Positions 4,768 to 34,429 of a stretch of 43,233 nucleotides of DNA are shown here, one piece after another. Source of the DNA: Ruminococcaceae bacterium UBA737 (GTDB lineage: Bacteria > Bacillota > Clostridia > Oscillospirales > Acutalibacteraceae). Where the stretch lies: NCBI GenBank assembly GCA_002297415.1, contig DBKZ01000057.1, positions 33,351-76,583 on the forward strand. The letters run 5' to 3'. Made by a program: the position numbers and the translations under genes. The notes under the pieces are model-generated. The model searched no databases, had not been told where the DNA came from, and saw only the letters and a program-made list of their open reading frames with translations. Numbering within the stretch: the first letter of the stretch is position 1; each line of letters begins with the position of its first letter.

Positions 4768-4796
4768 ATTATATACATTCTTATTGCTTTTGTCAA
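4768..4796 (-). promoter_or_regulatory. SigA-type promoter for alaS
   Basis: On the minus strand: TTGACA (4796-4791), a 17-nt spacer, then TATAAT (4773-4768). It lies about 70 nt upstream of the alaS ATG. Confidence 0.55.
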
Positions 4797-4812
4797 TGCC
4801 GCGGACAATAAT

Positions 4813-6555
4813 TCAGCTTTCGAACTGACTGTTATAAAGATTATAGTAAAACCCTTTCTTTTTAAGCAGCTGTTCGTGATTTCCGGTTTCGATAATATTT
4901 CCGTCCTTCATAACTAAAATTATATCGGCTTCTCTTATTGTCGAAAGCCTGTGAGCGACAATAAAGCTTGTTCTTCCCTGCATCATTTTATTAAACGCGC
5001 TCTGAATTCTAAGCTCGGTACGGGTATCTATTGACGAGGTCGCCTCGTCTAAAATCAGCATGGGCGGAATGCAGAGCATAACCCTTGCAATGCTTATCAG
5101 CTGCCTTTGCCCCAACGACAGCGAGCCCTCGTCCGAAATCACGGTGTCATATCCGTTTTTAAGCCTTGTTATAAACCCGTGGGCATGGGCGGCTTTGGCG
5201 GCGGCAATTATTTCTTCCTTTGAAGCTTCCGTGTTTCCTACCGAAATATTTTCATAAACCGTGCCGTTTTTAATAAATGTATCCTGCAAAACAAGACCGA
5301 AGTTTTTTCTTAATGATTTTCTTGTAACATCTTTTGTGTTAACACCGTCAACATAAATTGCGCCGCTGTCAACATCATAAAACCGCATAAGAAGGTTTAT
5401 AACGGTTGTTTTTCCGCAGCCCGTGGGACCGACAATCGCTACCCTGCTTCCCTTTTTCACGCTTAAATTGAAATCCTTTATAAGCGGCTTTTCAGGGCTG
5501 TAAGAAAAGCTGACATCTTTAATTTCGACATCGCCCCTGACCTCGCCGAGCTCAAGGCTTTTGCTATCATCGGGAATACTTTCGGCATCAAGAAAATCAA
5601 AAACTCTGTTTGCGCAGGCAATGGCGTTTTGCAACTCGGTTATAACTCCCGAAATTTCATTAAAGGGCTTTGTATACTGATTTGCATAGTTTAAAAAGCT
5701 TGAGAGAATTCCGACTGTTATACTGCTTCCGCCAAGAACCCCTATTACCGACAGCGCACCGAAAGCGCCTACGGCGGCATAGACAAAGTTATTTATAAGT
5801 CTTGTCGAGGGGTTTACAAGCGAGGAAAAGAATATCGCTTTAACCGAGGCTTTTTTAAGATCGTCGCTTACGGCATTATACCTTTCAAGCATTTTATCCT
5901 CATATCCGAAAGCCTTTAAAACCTTTGCTCCGGTTACGGTTTCTTCAATAACCGTCGTCTGCTTTCCCCTTAAAATCGACTGATTGTTAAACATCGAATA
6001 GGTCTTGCCCGAAATAAATTTTGCGACAAAAAGCGAAACGGGGGTTATCACAACAACCGCAAGCGCAATATAAAAATTCAGTGCAAACATAAATATCAGC
6101 GTGCCGAGTATCGTCATGACGCCTGTAAAGAACTGTGTAAAGCCCATTAAAAGACCGTCGGCAAAGGTGTCAATATCAGAAATCATTCTGTTTACGATAT
6201 CGCCGTGAGGATGAGAGTCTATATAAGAAACGGGAAGCTTCTGAAGCTTACCAAACACCGTTTCCCTCATTCTTTTAACTGTTTTAAAGGTTATCTTATT
6301 ATTGAAGGTTGACATAAGCCACTGGAACGCGGCATTTAAAACAACACAAAGGCAAGCCTTTAAAAGATATCCTTTAAGGCTTATAAAATCGACCTCGCCT
6401 TTTTTTACAATGCAGTCTATCGCCCTGCCGATAAGGATAGGAAAATAAAGCGTAAGCCCTACCGTAACAAGAGACAGCACCGCCGAAAAGACAATATATT
6501 TAATATCCGGCTTAATAAATACGGCAATTCTCTTTAAAGAAGAAGGCTTTTTCAT
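4813..6555 (-). CDS. ABC exporter, fused permease/ATPase subunit carrying the consensus ATPase site of a heterodimer
   Basis: 580 aa with an N-terminal 6-TM domain. Walker A is GPTGCGKTT, Walker B is MLILDE with the catalytic Glu, and the H-loop is VAHRLST. The signature motif LSLGQ is non-canonical. Confidence 0.9.
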   Translation of the reverse strand: MKKPSSLKRIAVFIKPDIKYIVFSAVLSLVTVGLTLYFPILIGRAIDCIVKKGEVDFISLKGYLLKACLCVVLNAAFQWLMSTFNNKITFKTVKRMRETVFGKLQKLPVSYIDSHPHGDIVNRMISDIDTFADGLLMGFTQFFTGVMTILGTLIFMFALNFYIALAVVVITPVSLFVAKFISGKTYSMFNNQSILRGKQTTVIEETVTGAKVLKAFGYEDKMLERYNAVSDDLKKASVKAIFFSSLVNPSTRLINNFVYAAVGAFGALSVIGVLGGSSITVGILSSFLNYANQYTKPFNEISGVITELQNAIACANRVFDFLDAESIPDDSKSLELGEVRGDVEIKDVSFSYSPEKPLIKDFNLSVKKGSRVAIVGPTGCGKTTVINLLMRFYDVDSGAIYVDGVNTKDVTRKSLRKNFGLVLQDTFIKNGTVYENISVGNTEASKEEIIAAAKAAHAHGFITRLKNGYDTVISDEGSLSLGQRQLISIARVMLCIPPMLILDEATSSIDTRTELRIQSAFNKMMQGRTSFIVAHRLSTIREADIILVMKDGNIIETGNHEQLLKKKGFYYNLYNSQFES

Positions 6556-8273
6556 TTTTCGTCCTCCTTTTTAAACTGTGAATCGTAAATTTCTTTGTAT
6601 TCGCCGCAATTTTCAAGCAGATAATCATGACTGCCCATTCCTACGCACTTTCCGTCGTCAAGCACGATTATTTTATCGCAGTCCTTTATACTTGATGTAC
6701 GCTGGGAAACAATAAAAACAGTAGTTTTGAAATCAAGTGCGGAAATTGCCTTACGGAGCTTTAAATCCGTCGCAAAATCAAGAGCGCTCGCGGAATCGTC
6801 AAGGATTAAAACCTCGGGCTTTTTAACCAAGGCTCTTGCAATCGTAAGCCTTTGGCGCTGTCCGCCCGAAAAGTTTTTTCCGCCCTGCTCGACCTTAAAA
6901 TCAAGTCCCTTTTCATTCACAAAATCTATTGCCTGAGCGGCTGTAAGAGCGTATTTGATATCCTCATCGCTTGCATATCGGTTACCGATAAGCATATTAT
7001 CTCTTATAGTGCCTGCAAAGAGCATTGCTTTTTGCGGAACCGTTCCGATTTTCCTGCAAAGCTCGTCCTTAGGATAAGAATTTACATTCTCGCCGTTTAA
7101 CAAAACCTCGCCCGAGGTTGCGTCATAAAATCTCGGAATTAAGCTTACAAGGCTTGACTTTCCGCTGCCCGTAGCCCCGATAATTCCTATCTTTTCTCCC
7201 CTTTTCGCACAAAAGCTTATTCCGCTTAGGCTGTTTGCGGAATCGGGCGAATATTTAAGGCTGACATTTTTGAATTCAACGGCATTTTCGCTTATTTTAT
7301 CGCCTACAGGTTCTTTTTCAAAGCTCTGAGAAACAGGCATATTTATTATACTTTCAATTCTGTTTTCGCATGCCGCGGACTTTGTCATAGTTATAATTAG
7401 GTTAGCAAGCTTTATAAGCTCAACCAAAATTAAAAGCATATAATTATAAAGAGATACTACCTGACCCTGAGTGAGCGCTCCGCTGTTTACCCTGAAAGCG
7501 CCTATATAAATCAGCGCCGCAACGGCAAAATTTATCAGCACATAGGTAAGCGGATTCATAAGCGCGGAAATTTTTCCGACAAGGGTCTGTCTGTTAAAAA
7601 GCAGCTCGGTTTTATCCCTGAATTCTTCCGCTTCCCTATCCTGATTATTAAAAGCTCTTATTACTCTTACACCCTTAAGATTTTCAAGCGAAGAAGAGGT
7701 AAGCCCGTCGAGAGCGGATTGCACCTTTTTATAAAGAGGAATGCAGATAAGCATTATTCCGAATACAACTATACTTAAAAGCGGAATAACCACCGCAAAG
7801 GTAACCGCGGCTTTAGCGTCGACAGTGAAAGCCATTATCATTGCCCCGAAAACGATAAACGGGGAACGGATAAAAAGCCTTAAGGTAAGGTTAATTCCCG
7901 TAAGCACCTGATTTGCGTCGCTTGTAAGTCGGGTGATAAGCGAGGAAGTACCGATATTATCAATATCGGAATAGGAAAAGGACTGAATTTTTTCGAACAT
8001 ATCCCTCTTTATTCCGTCTACAATTCTGACGCTCGCCGCCGCCGAAAAATACTGCGCGCATACAGTTGCGGCAAAGCCTAAAATTCCTAAGATTATAAGA
8101 ATTCCCGCCATTTTAAGAATATATCCCGTGTTATTCTGCTTAATACCGACATCAATAATTTTACTCATAACAAGCGGAACGCAAAGCTCAAAGGTTGCTT
8201 CAAGTGCCTTAAAGGCAGGTCCGCAGATACAGTAAGCCTTATTCTCGGCTGCATGTTTAAATAATACTTTCAT
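6552..8273 (-). CDS. ABC exporter, fused permease/ATPase subunit carrying the degenerate ATPase site of a heterodimer
   Basis: 573 aa. Walker A is GATGSGKSS and the signature is FSGGQ. Walker B is LILDD, with Asp replacing the catalytic Glu. The H-loop is VSQRTSS, with His replaced by Gln. There is a 4-nt overlap with the downstream partner. Confidence 0.9.
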   Translation of the reverse strand: MKVLFKHAAENKAYCICGPAFKALEATFELCVPLVMSKIIDVGIKQNNTGYILKMAGILIILGILGFAATVCAQYFSAAASVRIVDGIKRDMFEKIQSFSYSDIDNIGTSSLITRLTSDANQVLTGINLTLRLFIRSPFIVFGAMIMAFTVDAKAAVTFAVVIPLLSIVVFGIMLICIPLYKKVQSALDGLTSSSLENLKGVRVIRAFNNQDREAEEFRDKTELLFNRQTLVGKISALMNPLTYVLINFAVAALIYIGAFRVNSGALTQGQVVSLYNYMLLILVELIKLANLIITMTKSAACENRIESIINMPVSQSFEKEPVGDKISENAVEFKNVSLKYSPDSANSLSGISFCAKRGEKIGIIGATGSGKSSLVSLIPRFYDATSGEVLLNGENVNSYPKDELCRKIGTVPQKAMLFAGTIRDNMLIGNRYASDEDIKYALTAAQAIDFVNEKGLDFKVEQGGKNFSGGQRQRLTIARALVKKPEVLILDDSASALDFATDLKLRKAISALDFKTTVFIVSQRTSSIKDCDKIIVLDDGKCVGMGSHDYLLENCGEYKEIYDSQFKKEDEK

Positions 8274-8288
8274 AAATTACCCCGAAAA

Positions 8289-9359
8289 TTAAATAATAAT
8301 AAGCTCTTTTTTACTCTTTGTTATATCAAAGCAACCGTTATCGGTAACAAAAACCGTGTCCTCTATTCTTACCCCGAATTTATCCTCAATATAAATCCCG
8401 GGTTCAACAGTCACGGCATTTCCCGTTTCAAGCTCGCTGAGACTTTTAGGCGAAAGCGTCGGGAACTCGTGAATTTCAATTCCGAGGCTGTGTCCGAGAG
8501 CATGTCCGAAGCAGTTTTTATATCCCGCGTTTTCTATAATATCCCTTGCCACCTTATCAATATCCGAGCAGACCGCTCCTGCTTTTATTTCTCTTAAAGC
8601 GGCAAGCTGTGCCGAAAGCACGGTATTATAAACCTGTTTCATTTCATCCGTCGCATAGCCCACGGCGACCGTTCTTGTCATATCGGAATGATATCCGTTC
8701 ACAACGGCGCCGAAATCCATGGTGACAAAATCGCCGTTTTCTATTTTTTTATTTGTAGGCACTCCGTGCGGCAAAGAAGAGTTTTTGCCTGAAACCACGA
8801 TAAAATCAAAGGAGACTCCCTCGCTTCCGTGCTTTCTTATATAAAACTCCATATCGAGCATTATTTCTTTTTCTGTTTTACCGACCTTAATTCTGTCAAT
8901 AATATAATTAAAGGTATCGTCGGTAAGCTTCTGAGCGAGGATAATATTTTCCTGTTCTTCCTTTGATTTTACGGCGCGCATCTGATTTAACAAAGCGTCA
9001 AATCTGTCGCTGTCGCAGATATCGAATTCCGTAAAATATCCTTTAAAAGCCCTGAACTCATTGACAGAGGTATGATTCGCTTCTAAATAAACCGTTTTTA
9101 CATTCTGCTTAAAAAGCATTTCCTTTATTTGCGAATAAAGCTTAACGGTCATTTCGGTCTCGCATACGCTTATCGCCTTTTTTGCCTTTTCGAAATAGCG
9201 AAAATCAATAAAGAATTTCGCAAGCTTTTTTGTTATAACAAGAGTTCCCGTATCAGACTGATAGCCGGTAAGATAGAAACGGTTTGCGTCAGAGGTTATA
9301 ATAACCGCTTCATTTTGAGTTAAAATATTCTGTATAACGCTTAGTCTGTCTTTTTGCAT
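8289..9359 (-). CDS. M24 family Xaa-Pro aminopeptidase/dipeptidase
   Basis: 356 aa. The pita-bread-fold metal-ligand context is present: DFGAVVNGYHSDMTRT, GHSLGIEIHE and VEPGIY...RIED. Confidence 0.85.
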   Translation of the reverse strand: MQKDRLSVIQNILTQNEAVIITSDANRFYLTGYQSDTGTLVITKKLAKFFIDFRYFEKAKKAISVCETEMTVKLYSQIKEMLFKQNVKTVYLEANHTSVNEFRAFKGYFTEFDICDSDRFDALLNQMRAVKSKEEQENIILAQKLTDDTFNYIIDRIKVGKTEKEIMLDMEFYIRKHGSEGVSFDFIVVSGKNSSLPHGVPTNKKIENGDFVTMDFGAVVNGYHSDMTRTVAVGYATDEMKQVYNTVLSAQLAALREIKAGAVCSDIDKVARDIIENAGYKNCFGHALGHSLGIEIHEFPTLSPKSLSELETGNAVTVEPGIYIEDKFGVRIEDTVFVTDNGCFDITKSKKELIII

Positions 9360-29880: not shown

Positions 29881-31223
29881 ATGAAAAAAAGCGGCAAAAT
29901 TTTTCGGCATATTCTTATCCTTAACGGTAGTATTATCACTTTGCTCCTGCAAGAAAAAAGCACTTGATAATTCAGATTATTCTTCTTATTTTGTATTTGG
30001 AGACAATTCCCTCTCTTCGGATCAAATCTTCGAATCGGGGGAGCCAAAATCAGAAATTACCGAAAAAACTTCCGAAAAGACCACACACGCCTGTCCCCTC
30101 TTCGGGCGGAGCCGTTATTGAAACGGTTATCAAGGACAAGGAAATAAAAAGGGTTCCGTCCGACGGAATAAGAATAAAAAGCGACAGGCTGACGGTTTTT
30201 TCGTCTCTCGGCACCGCAAGGCAGGAAATTTATAAAAAGCTTCTTGCGGCAACAGAGGAATTCACAACCGGCTGGATAGATTTAGGAAAGCTTGACGGCA
30301 ATTTTAAAAGCGACATTTCAGCGGCTTTTCAGGCATTATGCGACGATTACCCCGAAATGTTCTGGCTGCCATCAAGCTATATGTTAAGCCGCACGGAATC
30401 GGGCGAAATAGCTGTTATGTTTGATGGAAAGGCTGAGTCATATACCCTTTCTTACCTTGCCTCAAAATCCGAGGCAAAAGAGATGAAAGCGAGACTTAAC
30501 GGGGTGCTTAATTCGGTTGCGGCGGCGACCGAGAATTTAAGCTCGCAATTTGAAGCCGAGCTTTATATTCATGATTTTATCTGCAGCAATACAACCTACA
30601 ATACGAACGGAAAATATATCTATTCGGCTTATGGCGCGCTTGTAGATAAGAATGCCGTTTGCGAGGGCTATTCAAGAGCCTTTGCGCTTCTTTGCTCAAA
30701 GGCAGGAATAAACTCATTCCTTGTAAGAGGTGTGAGCAGAGGGCAAAACCACATGTGGAACACCGTAAGCATTGATAACGCTTGGTATAACATAGATGTC
30801 ACTTGGGACGATCAGAACATACAGGGAAATCCGACCTACAGCTATTTTAATTTAACCGACGCTGAATTAAACATTGACCACACCCCTGCCTCCCACATCA
30901 ATCCGAAATCGGGAGCGGCAGACGAAAGCGGATTATTTAACCTTACAAAGAACAGCTGTACTGCTGCTGAAGTGAACTATTTTGTTCATGAAAAGCTTAT
31001 TTTAAACAGCGAAAGCGAAATCGGAGAACTATCCTTTTATATTAAATGGCAGCTTGACCGAGGTAAGCATTTTGCCCAGATAAAGGTTACAAATCAAAGT
31101 CTTTTAGCGGACGCCTCGGAGCTTAGGGGAAAAATTGCCGACGCAATGCAGAGAAACTTTTCTGTGGCGCTTACGGGAATGAATTTAATACAGAATACTA
31201 ATTATATTATTGTTTACTTTTAA
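29881..31223 (+). pseudogene. Transglutaminase-like (Cys-His-Asp core) lipoprotein gene disrupted by two +1 frameshifts
   Basis: The ATG at 29881 has a GGAG ribosome-binding site, but the frame stops after 28 codons. The +1 frame from the A7 tract (29884-29890) reads KKAAKFFGIFLSLTVVLSLCSC, a signal peptide with a lipobox, and stops at 30119-30121. The third frame (track ORF 29964-31223) carries the core CEGYSRAF...HMWN...DVTWDD. Confidence 0.7.
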
Positions 31224-31232
31224 ATTTTTAAG

Positions 31233-31279
31233 CCTCTGCTTATTTTATTAGGTTAAAATCAGCAGAGGTTTATTTTTTT
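31233..31279 (+). terminator. Rho-independent terminator ending the ychF-to-transglutaminase operon
   Basis: CCTCTGCT (31233-31240) pairs with AGCAGAGG (31261-31268), followed by TTTATTTTTTT. Confidence 0.75.
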
Positions 31280-31327
31280 AAGTATTTTCTTCTTTTACAT
31301 TAAAAATTAAGAGAAATCCGGCTTTTG

Positions 31328-31356
31328 TTGACTTTATTTTAAGAATAAACTATAAT
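31328..31356 (+). promoter_or_regulatory. SigA-type promoter for the glutamine synthetase gene
   Basis: TTGACT (31328-31333), a 17-nt spacer, then TATAAT (31351-31356). Confidence 0.55.
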
Positions 31357-31404
31357 AATATTAACTTGTCAATTTTTCTTTTTTTTAATTTCGGAGGGTG
31401 TATT

Positions 31405-33489
31405 TTGACTAAAATCGAGAAATTATTCGGAAGTATGGTTTTTAATGACAGCGTGATGAAAGAGCGTCTGCCCGATACTACCTACAATTCAATAAAACAG
31501 GCAATAAAAAGAGGCGTCGGCATTGACAGCCGCATTGCGGATACTGTCGCAAATGTCATGAAGGACTGGGCTATAGAAAAGGGTGCAACACATTTTACGC
31601 ACTGGTTTCAGCCTCTTACAGGCATTACCGCCGAAAAGCATGACAGCTTTATCGCTCCTGCCTCGGACGGAACGGTTATAATGGAATTTTCGGGAAAGGA
31701 GCTTATCAAGGGCGAGCCCGACGCATCGTCATTCCCCTCGGGAGGAATAAGAGCAACCTTTGAAGCAAGAGGATATACGGCTTGGGACCCGAGCTCTTAT
31801 GCCTTTGTAAAAGATAACACGCTTTGCATTCCCACCGCGTTTTGTTCCTACGGCGGCGAGGCGCTCGACCAGAAGACTCCGCTTCTTCGCAGTATGGACG
31901 CTTTAAACAAGCAGGTTATGCGAATAATAAGGCTGTTTAAAATTCCCGATGTTGAGCATATTGATACCACCGTCGGACCCGAGCAGGAATATTTCCTTAT
32001 CGACCGTGAGCTTTTCAAAAAGCGCCCCGATTTAATGTTTTGCGGAAGAACGCTTATAGGAGCGCTTCCGCCTAAGGGACAGGAAATGGACGACCATTAT
32101 TTCGGCGTTATAAAGCCGAGGGTTGCCGCATTTATGCGCGAGCTTGACGAGGAGCTTTGGAAGCTCGGAGTGCTTGCAAAAACAGAGCATAACGAGGTCG
32201 CCCCCGCTCAGCATGAGCTGGCCCCGATTTTCACCACCACCAATATTGCGGCAGACCACAATCAGCTCACCATGGAGCTTATGAAAAAGCTTGCCGACAA
32301 GCACGGACTTGTCTGCCTGCTTCATGAAAAGCCATTTGCGGGGGTAAACGGTTCAGGCAAGCACAACAACTGGTCGCTTTCTACCGACACGGGAATAAAT
32401 CTTTTAAAGCCCGGGAAAAATCCGAGCGAAAACAAGCTGTTTTTGCTCACGCTTTGCGCTGTTATTAAAGCGGTTGACGATCATCAAGACCTTTTAAGGA
32501 TTTCCGTAGCCTCAGCAGGAAATGATCATAGATTAGGTGCCTCCGAGGCTCCCCCCGCAATTGTTTCCATGTACTTAGGCGAAGAGCTTACGGCGCTTTT
32601 AAGAGATATTGACCGCGGCGCTCATCATAACGACGCAGGCAAGGTTAAAATGACAATAGGAACCGACACAATTCCTTACATAAGAAAGGACAACACCGAC
32701 AGGAACAGAACATCTCCTTTCGCCTTTACGGGCAATAAGTTCGAATTCCGCATGCTCGGCTCCTCCGCCTCGGTTTCGGATACAAACATTATGATAAACA
32801 CCATGGTAGCGGATGTTTTCATGCAGTTTGCAGACAGGCTTGAAATGACCGACGATTTTGAAAGCGAGGTTGCGGCTATAATAAAAGAAACCATCTCGTC
32901 GCACAAAAGAATTCTGTTCGACGGAGACGGTTATTCTAAAACATGGGAAGCTGAGGCTAAAAGCAGGGGGCTTTTAAATCTTAAAAGCACTGTCGACGCA
33001 GTCCCCTATCTTTGCAGTACCGCTAATATTGAATTATTCAAACGCCACGGCGTTTTAAACAAAACGGAGCTTACCTGCCGAGCCGACACAATGCTCGAAA
33101 AATACAGCAAAATTCTGCACATAGAGGCGCTTACGCTTTGTGAAATGATAAAGCGCGATGTTATGCCGGCAATTATTAAATATACCGATAAGCTAAGCTT
33201 TACCGCCGCAAACAAGGCAAATATCGGAATAAGCGCAACTGTCGAAAAGGACCTTGCTTTCAGACTTTCGGATATTTCCTCGAAGCTTTATTCATTGACT
33301 CTTGAGCTTGAAAACGCGGTTAAAAAAGCCTCATGCGAAACAGGAATACTTGAAACCGCGCTCCTTTACAACAAAGAGGTTCTTCCCTTAATGGAAAAGA
33401 TAAGATATCTTGCCGACCGTGCGGAAAGCATCACAGCCAGAGAATACTGGCCTTATCCTACCTACGGAGACTTGCTGTTTAAGATTTAA
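31405..33489 (+). CDS. glnA: Glutamine synthetase, type III
   Basis: About 694 aa. The N-terminus (L)[22 protein letters not shown]...[12 protein letters not shown] and the overall length are typical of GS type III. I place the start at TTG 31405, which lies 7 nt after GGAGGG. The ORF-track start at 31366 falls just after the predicted -10 box. Confidence 0.9.
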
Positions 33490-33497
33490 TCAAAAAT

Positions 33498-33695
33498 CGG
33501 CTCCCTTCTTATTGACGAATGTCAATACAGAGGGGAGCTGTCGTTCTAGATGCTAGACATTAGATTTTAGATATTAGACCATTGTGTACCTGTCGGCACT
33601 TGAATAAACCTAAACCCTATCGGCTCAGCCTTTCAGGCTGACCCACTTCCCCTTTCGTCTAAAGGGGAAGCTTAAGACTCTGCGAAATCTAAAGC
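33498..33695 (+). repeat. Tandem unit 1 of a ~190-nt multi-hairpin element (candidate structured ncRNA / glnA 3' UTR element)
   Basis: Hairpins lie at 33500-33538, 33584-33599, 33625-33641 and 33646-33670. There are five TAGA motifs at 33547, 33554, 33561, 33568 and 33575. The unit is collinear with 33696-33886. Confidence 0.85.
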
Positions 33696-33886
33696 AAGGC
33701 TCCCTTCTTATGCGCCAGCATATAGAGGGGAGCTGTCGTTCTAGATGCTAGACATTAGATTTTAGACATTAGACCATTGTGCGCCTAACGGCACCTGAAT
33801 AAACCTAAACCCTTCCGTCAAAGCTTCGCTTTGCCACTTCCCCTGTAGTCTTTAGGGGAGGCTTGGGTTCGTGCTGAATCTAAAGC
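33696..33886 (+). repeat. Tandem unit 2 of the same element
   Basis: Hairpins lie at 33699-33733, 33779-33794, 33819-33833 and 33837-33861. TAGA motifs lie at 33742, 33749, 33756, 33763 and 33770. The stems differ from unit 1 by compensatory changes, while the single-stranded stretches are almost identical (single T/C differences at 33572/33767 and 33600/33795). Confidence 0.85.
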
Positions 33887-34429
33887 TTACACATCTTGCC
33901 TGAACGGCAAATCAAAATAATCGGCAAGGGACAAAACAACATTTCTTGCGATTTCATCAATATTATCTCTTATCCAAACCGCGTCGTCATAATTATCATG
34001 ATACGCAAATTCTATCAAAACGCTCGGCGCTCTGGTTCTTCTCACCTCGCCGAGTGTTTTTGTTTCGACAGTCCTGACATTTTCGGGAATAGGATATATC
34101 ATTTGAAGATTATTGGCAATTATATCCGCCGCCCGCCTGCCGTTTATGCTTGTCGGGTAATAATACACCTCACTGCCCCTTACATCGCCTTTTCCGCTCG
34201 CTGTTGCGTTTGAATGAAGAGCCAAATGCAAATCATATCTTCCCGCATTCGAAGCCGCTATTGAGGACGCGGCGGTCATATCGGGAGTATTTCTGTTGAA
34301 TTCAATTCCCGTAGCGTATAAATAAGGCTCCATTGCGTCGGCAATCAAATTCATATAGTATTCTTCCGTTCCGCCTATTATATAAGGGTTAAACTCCTGT
34401 GTAGACGGACTCAAATAAATTCTGGGCAT
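33887..34429 (-). CDS. N-acetylmuramoyl-L-alanine amidase (Amidase_3-type, LSPSxQ subgroup)
   Basis: 180 aa with no signal peptide. Motifs IYLSPSTQEFNPY, DLHLALHSNA, RGSEVYYY and VLIEFAYHDN are present. Confidence 0.75.
   Translation of the reverse strand: MPRIYLSPSTQEFNPYIIGGTEEYYMNLIADAMEPYLYATGIEFNRNTPDMTAASSIAASNAGRYDLHLALHSNATASGKGDVRGSEVYYYPTSINGRRAADIIANNLQMIYPIPENVRTVETKTLGEVRRTRAPSVLIEFAYHDNYDDAVWIRDNIDEIARNVVLSLADYFDLPFRQDV

Follow-up and report, generated by a model that had tools for sequence, protein, structure and literature searches.

The window analysed here is a stretch of 43,233 nucleotides (nt) from Ruminococcaceae bacterium UBA737 (contig DBKZ01000057.1, forward strand), in which a gap of 397 nt (33490-33886) separates glnA, encoding a type III glutamine synthetase (GS), from a convergent gene for an N-acetylmuramoyl-L-alanine amidase. 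We propose, with a probability of roughly 0.8, that two chained units of a composite interspersed repeat family make up this gap, the family being one of uncultured gut bacteria of the Oscillospirales. The family is present in many copies and assembled from modules, it occurs in some lineages and is absent from others, its copy number at the glnA locus is polymorphic, it lies at gene 3' ends, and the pairing of its hairpins is conserved. In other words, it is a member of a well-known kind of element, the composite interspersed repeats of the BOX, BIME (bacterial interspersed mosaic element) and MITE (miniature inverted-repeat transposable element) kind. Consequently, the appropriate annotation of the region is an interspersed repeat array, and neither a glnA regulatory RNA nor a novel riboswitch candidate.

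A preliminary description of this DNA had divided the gap into two collinear units, at 33498-33695 and 33696-33886. Alignment with MAFFT bears out the division: 33490-33695 and 33696-33890 are collinear and 86% identical, with repeat spacings of 195, 191 and 199 nt. Core 24-26-mers of the units occur twice in the 43-kb window where none would be expected, and a scan for the TAGAnnn heptads gave four matches, again with none expected. The single T/C differences listed between the units (33572/33767 and 33600/33795) are present in the bases, and the list of open reading frames (ORFs) holds no long ORF common to both units, as had been claimed.

Distribution of the family and the glnA site in relatives

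A further copy lies 80 nt past the window end, just after a sigma-factor gene that extends beyond the window, as seen in a contig of the same species (L121). About 150 nt past this gene, a number of short metagenome contigs break off. In locus L128, whose minus strand corresponds to the plus strand of the window, the 925-nt gap after this gene (8185-9110) holds three more units, namely one without the first hairpin (P1), one with an extra hairpin and three heptads, and one followed by an inverted heptad array; other hairpins are found in the same gap. About 64 kb of sequence from the source species contains four arrays. A scan of viral contigs with a degenerate heptad pattern (TAGAN3 x5) returned, among the matches listed, mostly perfect 7-nt microsatellites with no likeness to the units beyond the heptads; because this pattern was unspecific, a specific 20-mer of the heptad region was chosen for the genome scan. 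Among species-representative genomes the 20-mer gave 69 stretches, about 40 of them in a few Oscillospirales metagenome-assembled genomes (MAGs), with at most about 20 sites per assembly. Moreover, nhmmer searches with module seeds delimited 41 distinct arrays in 26 sources (Oscillospirales MAG loci), and the pattern of the invariant P1 base retrieved 91 distinct sites on 84 metagenome stretches, single samples contributing dozens of these sites. The hosts are uncultured Oscillospirales gut bacteria, assigned to the Eubacteriales or the Acutalibacteraceae.

The preliminary description had recognised no known RNA family in the gap, and the Rfam check agrees. Specifically, Rfam 15 returned no match over the whole window at gathering thresholds, only noise over 33300-34100 at E <= 10, and nothing on the elements of the family loci L184, L178, L153 and L128 at E <= 0.1. 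A blastn search of the gap in distant mode found no match in plasmid and phage collections, and text searches of the literature with family consensus strings found no relevant paper. Judged by these searches, the repeat family is apparently undescribed. By the criterion that the preliminary description itself had set, the claim of a novel glnA RNA is nonetheless undercut, since the units belong to a repeat family of the MITE/REP kind (REP, repetitive extragenic palindrome).

The modules follow one another in the order P1, an optional hairpin X, five TAGAYNT heptads, P2, a linker with AAACCCT, P3, P4 and a tail, and units chain tail-to-P1, an arrangement seen in most arrays. The P1 base, GCTCCCTTCT/AGAGGGGAGC including a T.G wobble, recurs unchanged in 34-35 of 35 copies, against about 78% identity over the rest of the family, and the P1 tip is one of several alternative stems, all of which pair. 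Hairpin X, which is absent from the window units, is known in 16 variants that all pair and is followed by TGAGGGGTATT (also written GAGGGGTATT); P3 has at least five stem variants in the family. The strings of modules vary between arrays, with X present or absent, three to seven heptads, extra hairpins nested in P4 and three alleles at the glnA locus. Likewise, three species differ in the sets of modules present at the orthologous sigma locus.

As a separate observation on P4, some copies (L153:3290-3360, L178, L205, L220, L232, L263) contain inside this hairpin an insertion of about 70 nt with two more hairpins (...CTCCGGAAGACGGGAACCCTTTTGTCCGCTAATGCGGACATTTCCCCTAACAGGGGAATTTCC...), so that modules can nest in modules.

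In the nearest lineage with the same gene order (L122/L123 and L125/L126) the glnA site is empty. GS is 81-83% identical there, no gap exists, and the glnA ORF and the amidase ORF share 11 nt (L122:12075-12085, L125:12141-12151); an nhmmer module search of these element-free 22-kb loci found no module anywhere. Since the ORFs of the element-free relatives overlap, the element has separated two genes that once shared their 3' ends. In the window, the amidase stop codon (33887-33889) directly abuts the element, and the last amidase codons are unlike those at the L122 and L125 junctions. Contigs encoding an identical GS protein (P0121, of the species-level cluster of the window) have gaps of differing length. 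The shortest allele, of 89 nt, holds P2, the linker, a degenerate remnant and the tail, without P1; the window allele has 397 nt and is identical in the gap to that of L121; and the longest reaches at least 614 nt, including an N run (scaffold gap), with about three units. Some of these contigs end inside the array. The right junction, CTAAAGC joined to TTACAC, is common to all glnA-locus alleles (L289-L294); the left junctions differ, that of sister strains reading TTTTAAAACAA and then P2. Units therefore turn over by gain, loss and exchange, and, as unequal gaps stand beside an identical GS, the array is a length-polymorphic locus that is mostly dispensable next to glnA.

These results bear directly on the reading adopted in the preliminary description, according to which the gap encodes a plus-strand structured RNA specific to the 3' region of type III glnA, either a regulator in the 3' untranslated region (UTR) or a tandem-duplicated processed small RNA. 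It is true that the element lies 10 nt past the glnA stop on the same strand, that its hairpins are strong with their pairing maintained, and that for P1 and P4 of unit 2 the plus strand gives the better fold. However, the site is empty in the nearest syntenic lineage, the array ranges from a one-unit fragment to about three units among strains that do not differ in their GS protein, the modules follow many unrelated genes such as those of the sigma factor and ribosomal protein L7/L12, and both orientations relative to the flanking genes occur. That is, linkage to genes of glutamine metabolism is not conserved: it is absent in syntenic relatives and variable among strains, and most copies follow unrelated genes, at dozens of intergenic sites. 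The supposed tie to glnA does not hold; this distribution largely refutes a glnA-specific RNA, which we find scarcely credible. With the glnA RNA/glutamine riboswitch and the Downstream-peptide motif, the only likeness is the association with glutamine synthetase, as the family has no Rfam match even at E <= 10, lies 3' and not 5' of the gene, and is not conserved with glnA.

Anatomy of the units and conservation of pairing

The features of the locus, including the two flanking genes, are as follows.

31366-33489, plus strand: type III glutamine synthetase ORF (glnA; Pfam GSIII_N at 5e-81, Gln-synt_C-ter and Gln-synt_C), upstream neighbour, outside the element
33490-33499, plus strand: left junction spacer TCAAAAATCG; on the minus strand it reads as a T-run right after the reverse complement of P1
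33500-33538, plus strand: P1 of unit 1, 10-bp base with T.G wobble, variable tip TATTGAC-GAAT-GTCAATA; -24.7 kcal/mol
33547-33581, plus strand: heptad array of unit 1, 5 x TAGAnnn (TAGATGC TAGACAT TAGATTT TAGATAT TAGACCA)
33584-33599, plus strand: P2 hairpin of unit 1, GTGTACCTGTCGGCAC, with an A.C mismatch on the plus strand; in the family P2 covaries, with CG/GC and UA/CG swaps
33600-33624, plus strand: unpaired linker of unit 1, with AAACCCT at 33612-33618, family-invariant in the 19-copy alignment
33625-33641, plus strand: P3 of unit 1, TCAGCCT-TTC-AGGCTGA, one of the at least five family stem variants; -9.0 kcal/mol
33646-33670, plus strand: P4 of unit 1, CTTCCCCTTT-CGTCT-AAAGGGGAAG; -13.5 kcal/mol, recovered in the family consensus fold
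33671-33695, plus strand: tail of unit 1, CTTAAGACTCTGCGAAATCTAAAGC; in family arrays the tail runs directly into the next P1
33699-33733, plus strand: P1 of unit 2, base as in unit 1, tip TATGC-GCCA-GCATA; -23.4 kcal/mol
33742-33776, plus strand: heptad array of unit 2, 5 x TAGAnnn, from the sequence and the motif scan
33779-33794, plus strand: P2 hairpin of unit 2, GTGCGCCTAACGGCAC, from the family alignment and single-hairpin folding
33795-33818, plus strand: linker of unit 2, with AAACCCT at 33807-33813
33819-33833, plus strand: P3 of unit 2, CAAAGC-TTC-GCTTTG, a family variant that recurs in L179, L136, L155 and L211; -4.0 kcal/mol
33837-33861, plus strand: P4 of unit 2, CTTCCCCTG...TAGGGGAGG; -13.1 kcal/mol, the CTGTAGTCTTTAG variant being frequent in the family
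33862-33886, plus strand: tail of unit 2, ending at the right junction
33887-34429, minus strand: N-acetylmuramoyl-L-alanine amidase gene (Pfam Amidase_3), convergent neighbour

The hairpins P1, P3 and P4 each fold alone as had been drawn, with energies of -4 to -25 kcal/mol, and the whole gap folds better than shuffled sequences (z = -6.8 on the plus strand and z = -4.9 on the minus strand). The stretches taken to be single-stranded are, as had been described, nearly identical between the units; they are not featureless, as 33547-33581 and 33742-33776 are arrays of five TAGAnnn heptads. In an alignment of 19 copies of the half that runs from P2 to the tail, RNAalifold recovers P2, P3 and P4. 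Standard pairs are formed by 95.9% of the cells of this 19-copy pairing, as compared to 80.0% in shuffles and 37-56% for slid partners, and 53 cells are changed on both sides, as compared to 20.4 in shuffles; values as high as those observed did not arise in any of the 500 shuffles. Accordingly, the claim that pairing is kept by compensatory changes is borne out on the scale of the family. The variable P1 tips, the 16 X variants and 20 P3 inserts also all fold. A further candidate pairing, of the linker with the tail (AAACCC/GGGTT), was rejected, as it is not predicted by RNAalifold and the tail variants lack consistent covariation by eye.

The differences between the two window units were a separate claim, in that they had been read as covariation between the units, and this reading does not hold. 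In the P2-to-tail half the nearest relative of unit 1 is a copy in another genome (85%) and that of unit 2 is another copy (78%). Since each unit is closer to copies elsewhere, the pair is not the product of local duplication plus later compensatory change. Moreover, the variants that separate the units (P1 tips, P3 stems and the P4 loop) all recur elsewhere in the family: the P3 variant of unit 1 is found in L192, L220, L232, L262 and L264, and the P1 tip of unit 2 is identical in the metagenome copy L228 and the L291 allele. The differences are thus pre-existing family variants set side by side, and because such variants look like compensatory changes, covariation between tandem copies misleads. 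Screens for structured RNAs that rely on it would be misled by repeat families of this kind.

As for the strand, the preliminary description had argued for a plus-strand RNA from non-Watson-Crick pairs. The T/G or G/T pairs at 33506/33532, 33705/33727, 33587/33596, 33838/33860 and 33845/33853 are indeed present in the bases. The A of P2 in unit 1, described as bulged, is instead part of an A.C mismatch in the family alignment (pair 10/19), and since this becomes G.U on the minus strand, not all non-Watson-Crick positions favour the plus strand. P2 alone also folds better on the minus strand (-7.4/-9.0 kcal/mol) than on the plus strand (-1.9/-4.6 kcal/mol), and the folding energy of the window gap is nearly equal on the two strands (-141.9 versus -141.7 kcal/mol). 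What stands of the argument is the folding of 37 arrays, which is 5.6 kcal/mol better on the plus strand (Wilcoxon p = 1e-4, in a comparison that does not amount to 37 independent tests since the arrays share ancestry). Over the same arrays G-U pairs number 287 of 2894 on the plus strand and 188 of 2773 on the minus strand. The wobble asymmetry was rejected as proof of strand: in the 19 copies of the P2-to-tail half (module B), plus-strand G-U pairs number about 11, five of them in one pair, barely above the C-A/A-C count of about 7. With both orientations also occurring next to genes, the evidence on strand is mixed and only weakly favours the plus strand.

The better plus-strand folding would be expected if the units were RNA platforms for a trans-acting protein that coordinates many 3' UTRs of the host, with the five UAG-N4 heptads and the P1 base as candidate binding sites, so that the family would be functional and not selfish. 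Consistent with such a host regulon are the number of heptads, fixed at five in 106 of 178 distinct arrays, the invariance of the TAGA core next to variable spacers, and the sameness of the P1 base with its G.U wobble. The UAG-N4 spacing, with five UAGs at period 7 in the units, resembles that of the HutP site, in which UAG triplets 4 nt apart are placed so as to control a terminator in genomes with a hutP gene; the inverted arrays argue against the HutP idea. In fact, the inverted (TCTA) arrays belong to the same elements, and a UAG-specific RNA-binding protein would not read them. Arrays are also about as often antisense as sense to the adjacent gene, copy number at one locus varies freely, and no candidate binding protein was identified. 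Taken together, a host regulon appears very improbable.

Genomic context, termination and mobility

The 41 arrays always adjoin the 3' end of a gene. Gaps between convergent genes account for about 15-17 of them (some 40%), 9 have the sense and 11-13 the antisense orientation relative to a flanking gene, and long ORFs and divergent gaps contain none, though these counts depend on crude ORF calls and on loci found via the element's own sequence. Genes preceding copies include those of the sigma factor and of ribosomal protein L7/L12, and in several loci P1 starts 3-10 nt past the stop codon. Where heptads open an array, its first position often coincides with the T-run in the terminator of the upstream gene. 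At the sigma locus one unit is located between the stop codon and the terminator, and an element-free relative has the terminator alone.

Another possibility is that the gap is a terminator or insulator dedicated to this convergent gene pair. On the minus strand, T-rich runs come directly after the reverse complement of P1 (ATTTTTGA in the window, TTTTCTTT or TTGTTTTA in many copies), and the element-free relatives have no inter-gene space at all, both of which would suit this possibility. The minus-strand P1, however, has a C.A mismatch, the plus-strand hairpins lack a following T-run, and scanning the gap for promoter and terminator consensus sequences revealed neither a terminator in P1 or P4 nor a convincing promoter within the units. 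Furthermore, at other loci the flanking gene has an ordinary terminator before or after the array, and in sister strains an 89-nt remnant without P1 suffices. A dedicated terminator is therefore distinctly unlikely.

A different kind of alternative is suggested by the heptads. Their family consensus is TAGA-Y-N-T, an inverted (TCTA) heptad array closes many copies, and many metagenome copies read (TAGA x5)-core-(TCTA x5). Among neighbouring arrays, the forward-then-inverted order is found 50 times and the reverse order 8 times. This organisation would fit an element that acts as DNA, whose heptad arrays would be terminal repeats or iterons, that is, foldback or MITE-type transposon ends, or else cooperative binding arrays of the ribbon-helix-helix type; the omega repressor, for example, binds 7-bp heptads in either orientation. 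The patchy distribution among lineages and the breaking of assemblies within arrays are in line with this proposal. On the other hand, neither a target-site duplication nor, in the loci fetched, a parent element with a transposase was found, the copy in the window is without the inverted array, and both the GNNA-type loops and the conservation of the G.U wobble are more in keeping with RNA than with duplex DNA. The forward and inverted arms of the Oscillospirales family are moreover no more alike at the spacer positions (0.64) than random pairs (0.63). A DNA-level element is thus possible but doubtful. The same comparison rules out the arms as a co-evolving long hairpin in this family, their complementarity being no better than that of random pairs.

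We therefore return to the composite interspersed repeat, for which the following sequence of events can be proposed. The element would have entered, or expanded, where the glnA and amidase stop codons once overlapped, and the number of units would then have changed between strains, most simply by unequal recombination or slippage between units or by exchange with other copies. As selfish or near-neutral DNA, it would be tolerated solely in zones downstream of genes and passively transcribed, from glnA on the plus strand and from the amidase gene on the minus strand. Its stable hairpins could act as generic 3'-end structures, that is, as barriers to 3'-to-5' exonucleases and as a buffer between the convergent transcripts, and on the minus strand the reverse complement of P1 with its T-rich run may be a terminator. 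Finally, the P1 base and the five-heptad arrays might be recognition sites for a putative trans-acting protein that maintains or moves the element.

Several points weigh against this interpretation, beyond the crude basis of the context counts. Transcription of the units, their effects on RNA stability or termination and their way of spread are parts of it that we infer. In about 1.5 Mb of fetched loci no transposase or mobilising gene was found beside any copy, nor an ORF-bearing parent element, and the sole recurrent gene flanked by arrays is YpsA/SLOG-like and not a transposase. No target-site duplication flanks 10 complete forward-to-inverted elements, and none is present at the glnA or sigma junctions. 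The window copy would look like a complete MITE if it did not lack the inverted heptad array. In addition, the invariant P1 base with its wobble, the fixed five heptads and the better plus-strand folding are unexplained by a purely selfish element; they may reflect a specific role of the element for the host or a protein partner.

The YpsA/SLOG genes (137-159 amino acids (aa), PF06908) lie between arrays at L200:6358-7054, L179:3591-4507, L155:7261-7674 and L172:1419-1832, with at least two loci on one contig. In the two loci examined, L200 and L179, the gene is paired with a divergent small regulator gene, labelled by eye as ribbon-helix-helix-like in L200 and XRE-type-like in L179; together the two genes may form a small cassette that is mobile or has been duplicated.

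Related systems and further observations

Among known repeats, the BOX, RUP and SPRITE elements of Streptococcus pneumoniae show enrichment in the gaps between convergent genes, and extensive folding is predicted for them (PMC3049150). Like the present family, they have modules that are absent or multiplied, would form stem-loops if transcribed, are enriched 3' of genes and in convergent gaps, and are patchy among related species (PMC3049150). Their effects on co-transcribed genes are likely incidental, as is proposed here for the family (PMC3049150). No sequence relationship to them was found or expected, and the family differs from BOX in its longer units (about 190-215 nt), its head-to-tail chaining, its five-heptad arrays, its hairpins with an invariant base and a hypervariable tip, and its Oscillospirales host.

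The BIME/REP sequences of enterobacteria are similar in being mosaics of palindromic units and linkers, extragenic at gene 3' ends and variable in number among strains. REP hairpins stabilise the upstream mRNA, and a REP near a stop codon can lower translation. Unlike BIME/REP, the family has no GTAG-type head and no alternating REP orientation, and it uses several different hairpin modules in place of one palindromic unit; the P2 hairpin after TAGA repeats is a loose resemblance only. No gene for a REP-associated tyrosine transposase (RAYT), which in REP/RAYT systems is flanked by REPs, was seen near family copies, although no genome-wide RAYT search was made.

With MITEs such as Correia elements and bcr1 of the Bacillus cereus group, the family shares its small size, lack of coding capacity, multiple copies and high degree of base pairing (PMC2229807, PMC3184786). 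Many members also carry inverted heptad arrays at their ends, as reflected in the 50 versus 8 arrangement of the heptads, although the arms match no better than random pairs at the spacer positions. They are unlike MITEs in showing no target-site duplication, no matching insertion sequence in the loci fetched and ends made of 7-nt arrays in place of a unique terminal inverted repeat, one end being missing from the window copy.

The heptad arrays are the part that most deserves separate study. One could suppose that they are a functional motif shared across phyla, either foldback mobile-element ends with translational stops or protein-binding arrays whose protein also recognises the P1 base; we rate this as rather unlikely. 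If it were true, the units of the glnA gap would be one local product of a far broader unrecognised system. Owing to their period of 7, the heptads carry TAG on one strand and TAA/TAG on the other, with all six frames stopped within three units. The nearest published analogue is the TAACTGA heptamer, which forms arrays of direct repeats in Beggiatoaceae, Cyanobacteria and Bacteroidetes (PMC4679880). As with the heptads described here, these are intergenic tandem 7-nt units with stop codons, found across phyla and often directly upstream of start codons (PMC4679880). Our heptads differ in being imperfect (a TAGA core with three looser positions), in their number near five and, in the Oscillospirales family, in forming part of a larger structured element.

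Near-identical (T/C)TAGAYN heptad arrays are also seen in Bacteroidota (Saprospiraceae, Flavobacteriaceae, Pontibacter and others; loci L137, L138, L141, L146, L148, L150, L162, L163, L169, L175, L191, L195 and L203). Some of them form perfect array-loop-inverted-array hairpins 3' of genes, and in 15 of 45 cases a TCTA-oriented array is followed, within 40 nt, by the ATG of an ORF of 80 aa or more.

With regard to the wider significance of the family, hairpins with an invariant base and a hypervariable tip, five-heptad arrays and heptads common to different phyla are unusual among bacterial repeats and may point to a putative protein partner. Strong hairpins 3-10 nt past the stop codons of housekeeping genes may alter their expression. 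In practical terms, the family breaks short-read assemblies of gut MAGs, and its strain-level length polymorphisms could serve as typing markers.

Other repeated modules were encountered along with the family. A different hairpin, GACCCCGTACCTTAAAAAGGTACGGGGT, occurs twice in the long gap of L128 (8452-8479 and 8190-8218) and has no copy in the window; it may represent either a second family of small repeats or a terminator present in duplicate. Several arrays (L128:8885-8945, L184 at about 4770-4830, L216, L263, L268) are followed by a recurrent end module, GCCTCCCTTGCCTAAAGGGAGGGCGGACCGCGNTCACGCGGTGGAGGGATTTTT(T)CTTT, whose two hairpins and T-run look like a terminator carried with the repeat. 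In the Acutalibacteraceae MAGs L139, L147, L176, L185, L188 and L201, a P4-like hairpin CCTTCCCCTNNAGGGGAAGG and a conserved GGTGCCGAGGAACGAGGCGGATGAGGTG stand beside heptad arrays. This layout is related to that of the family but distinct from it and suggests, from the sequences, a wider superfamily of repeats sharing heptads and C4/G4 hairpins.

Two minor observations concern glnA. The mechanical GS ORF opens with TTG at 31366; the ATG at 31405 is the likely true start, as it gives the 694 aa of database homologues, among them P0001, which is 99% identical. In the 200 nt 5' of the gene (31200-31400), G+C is just 21-29%, and this is likely a promoter or leader region.

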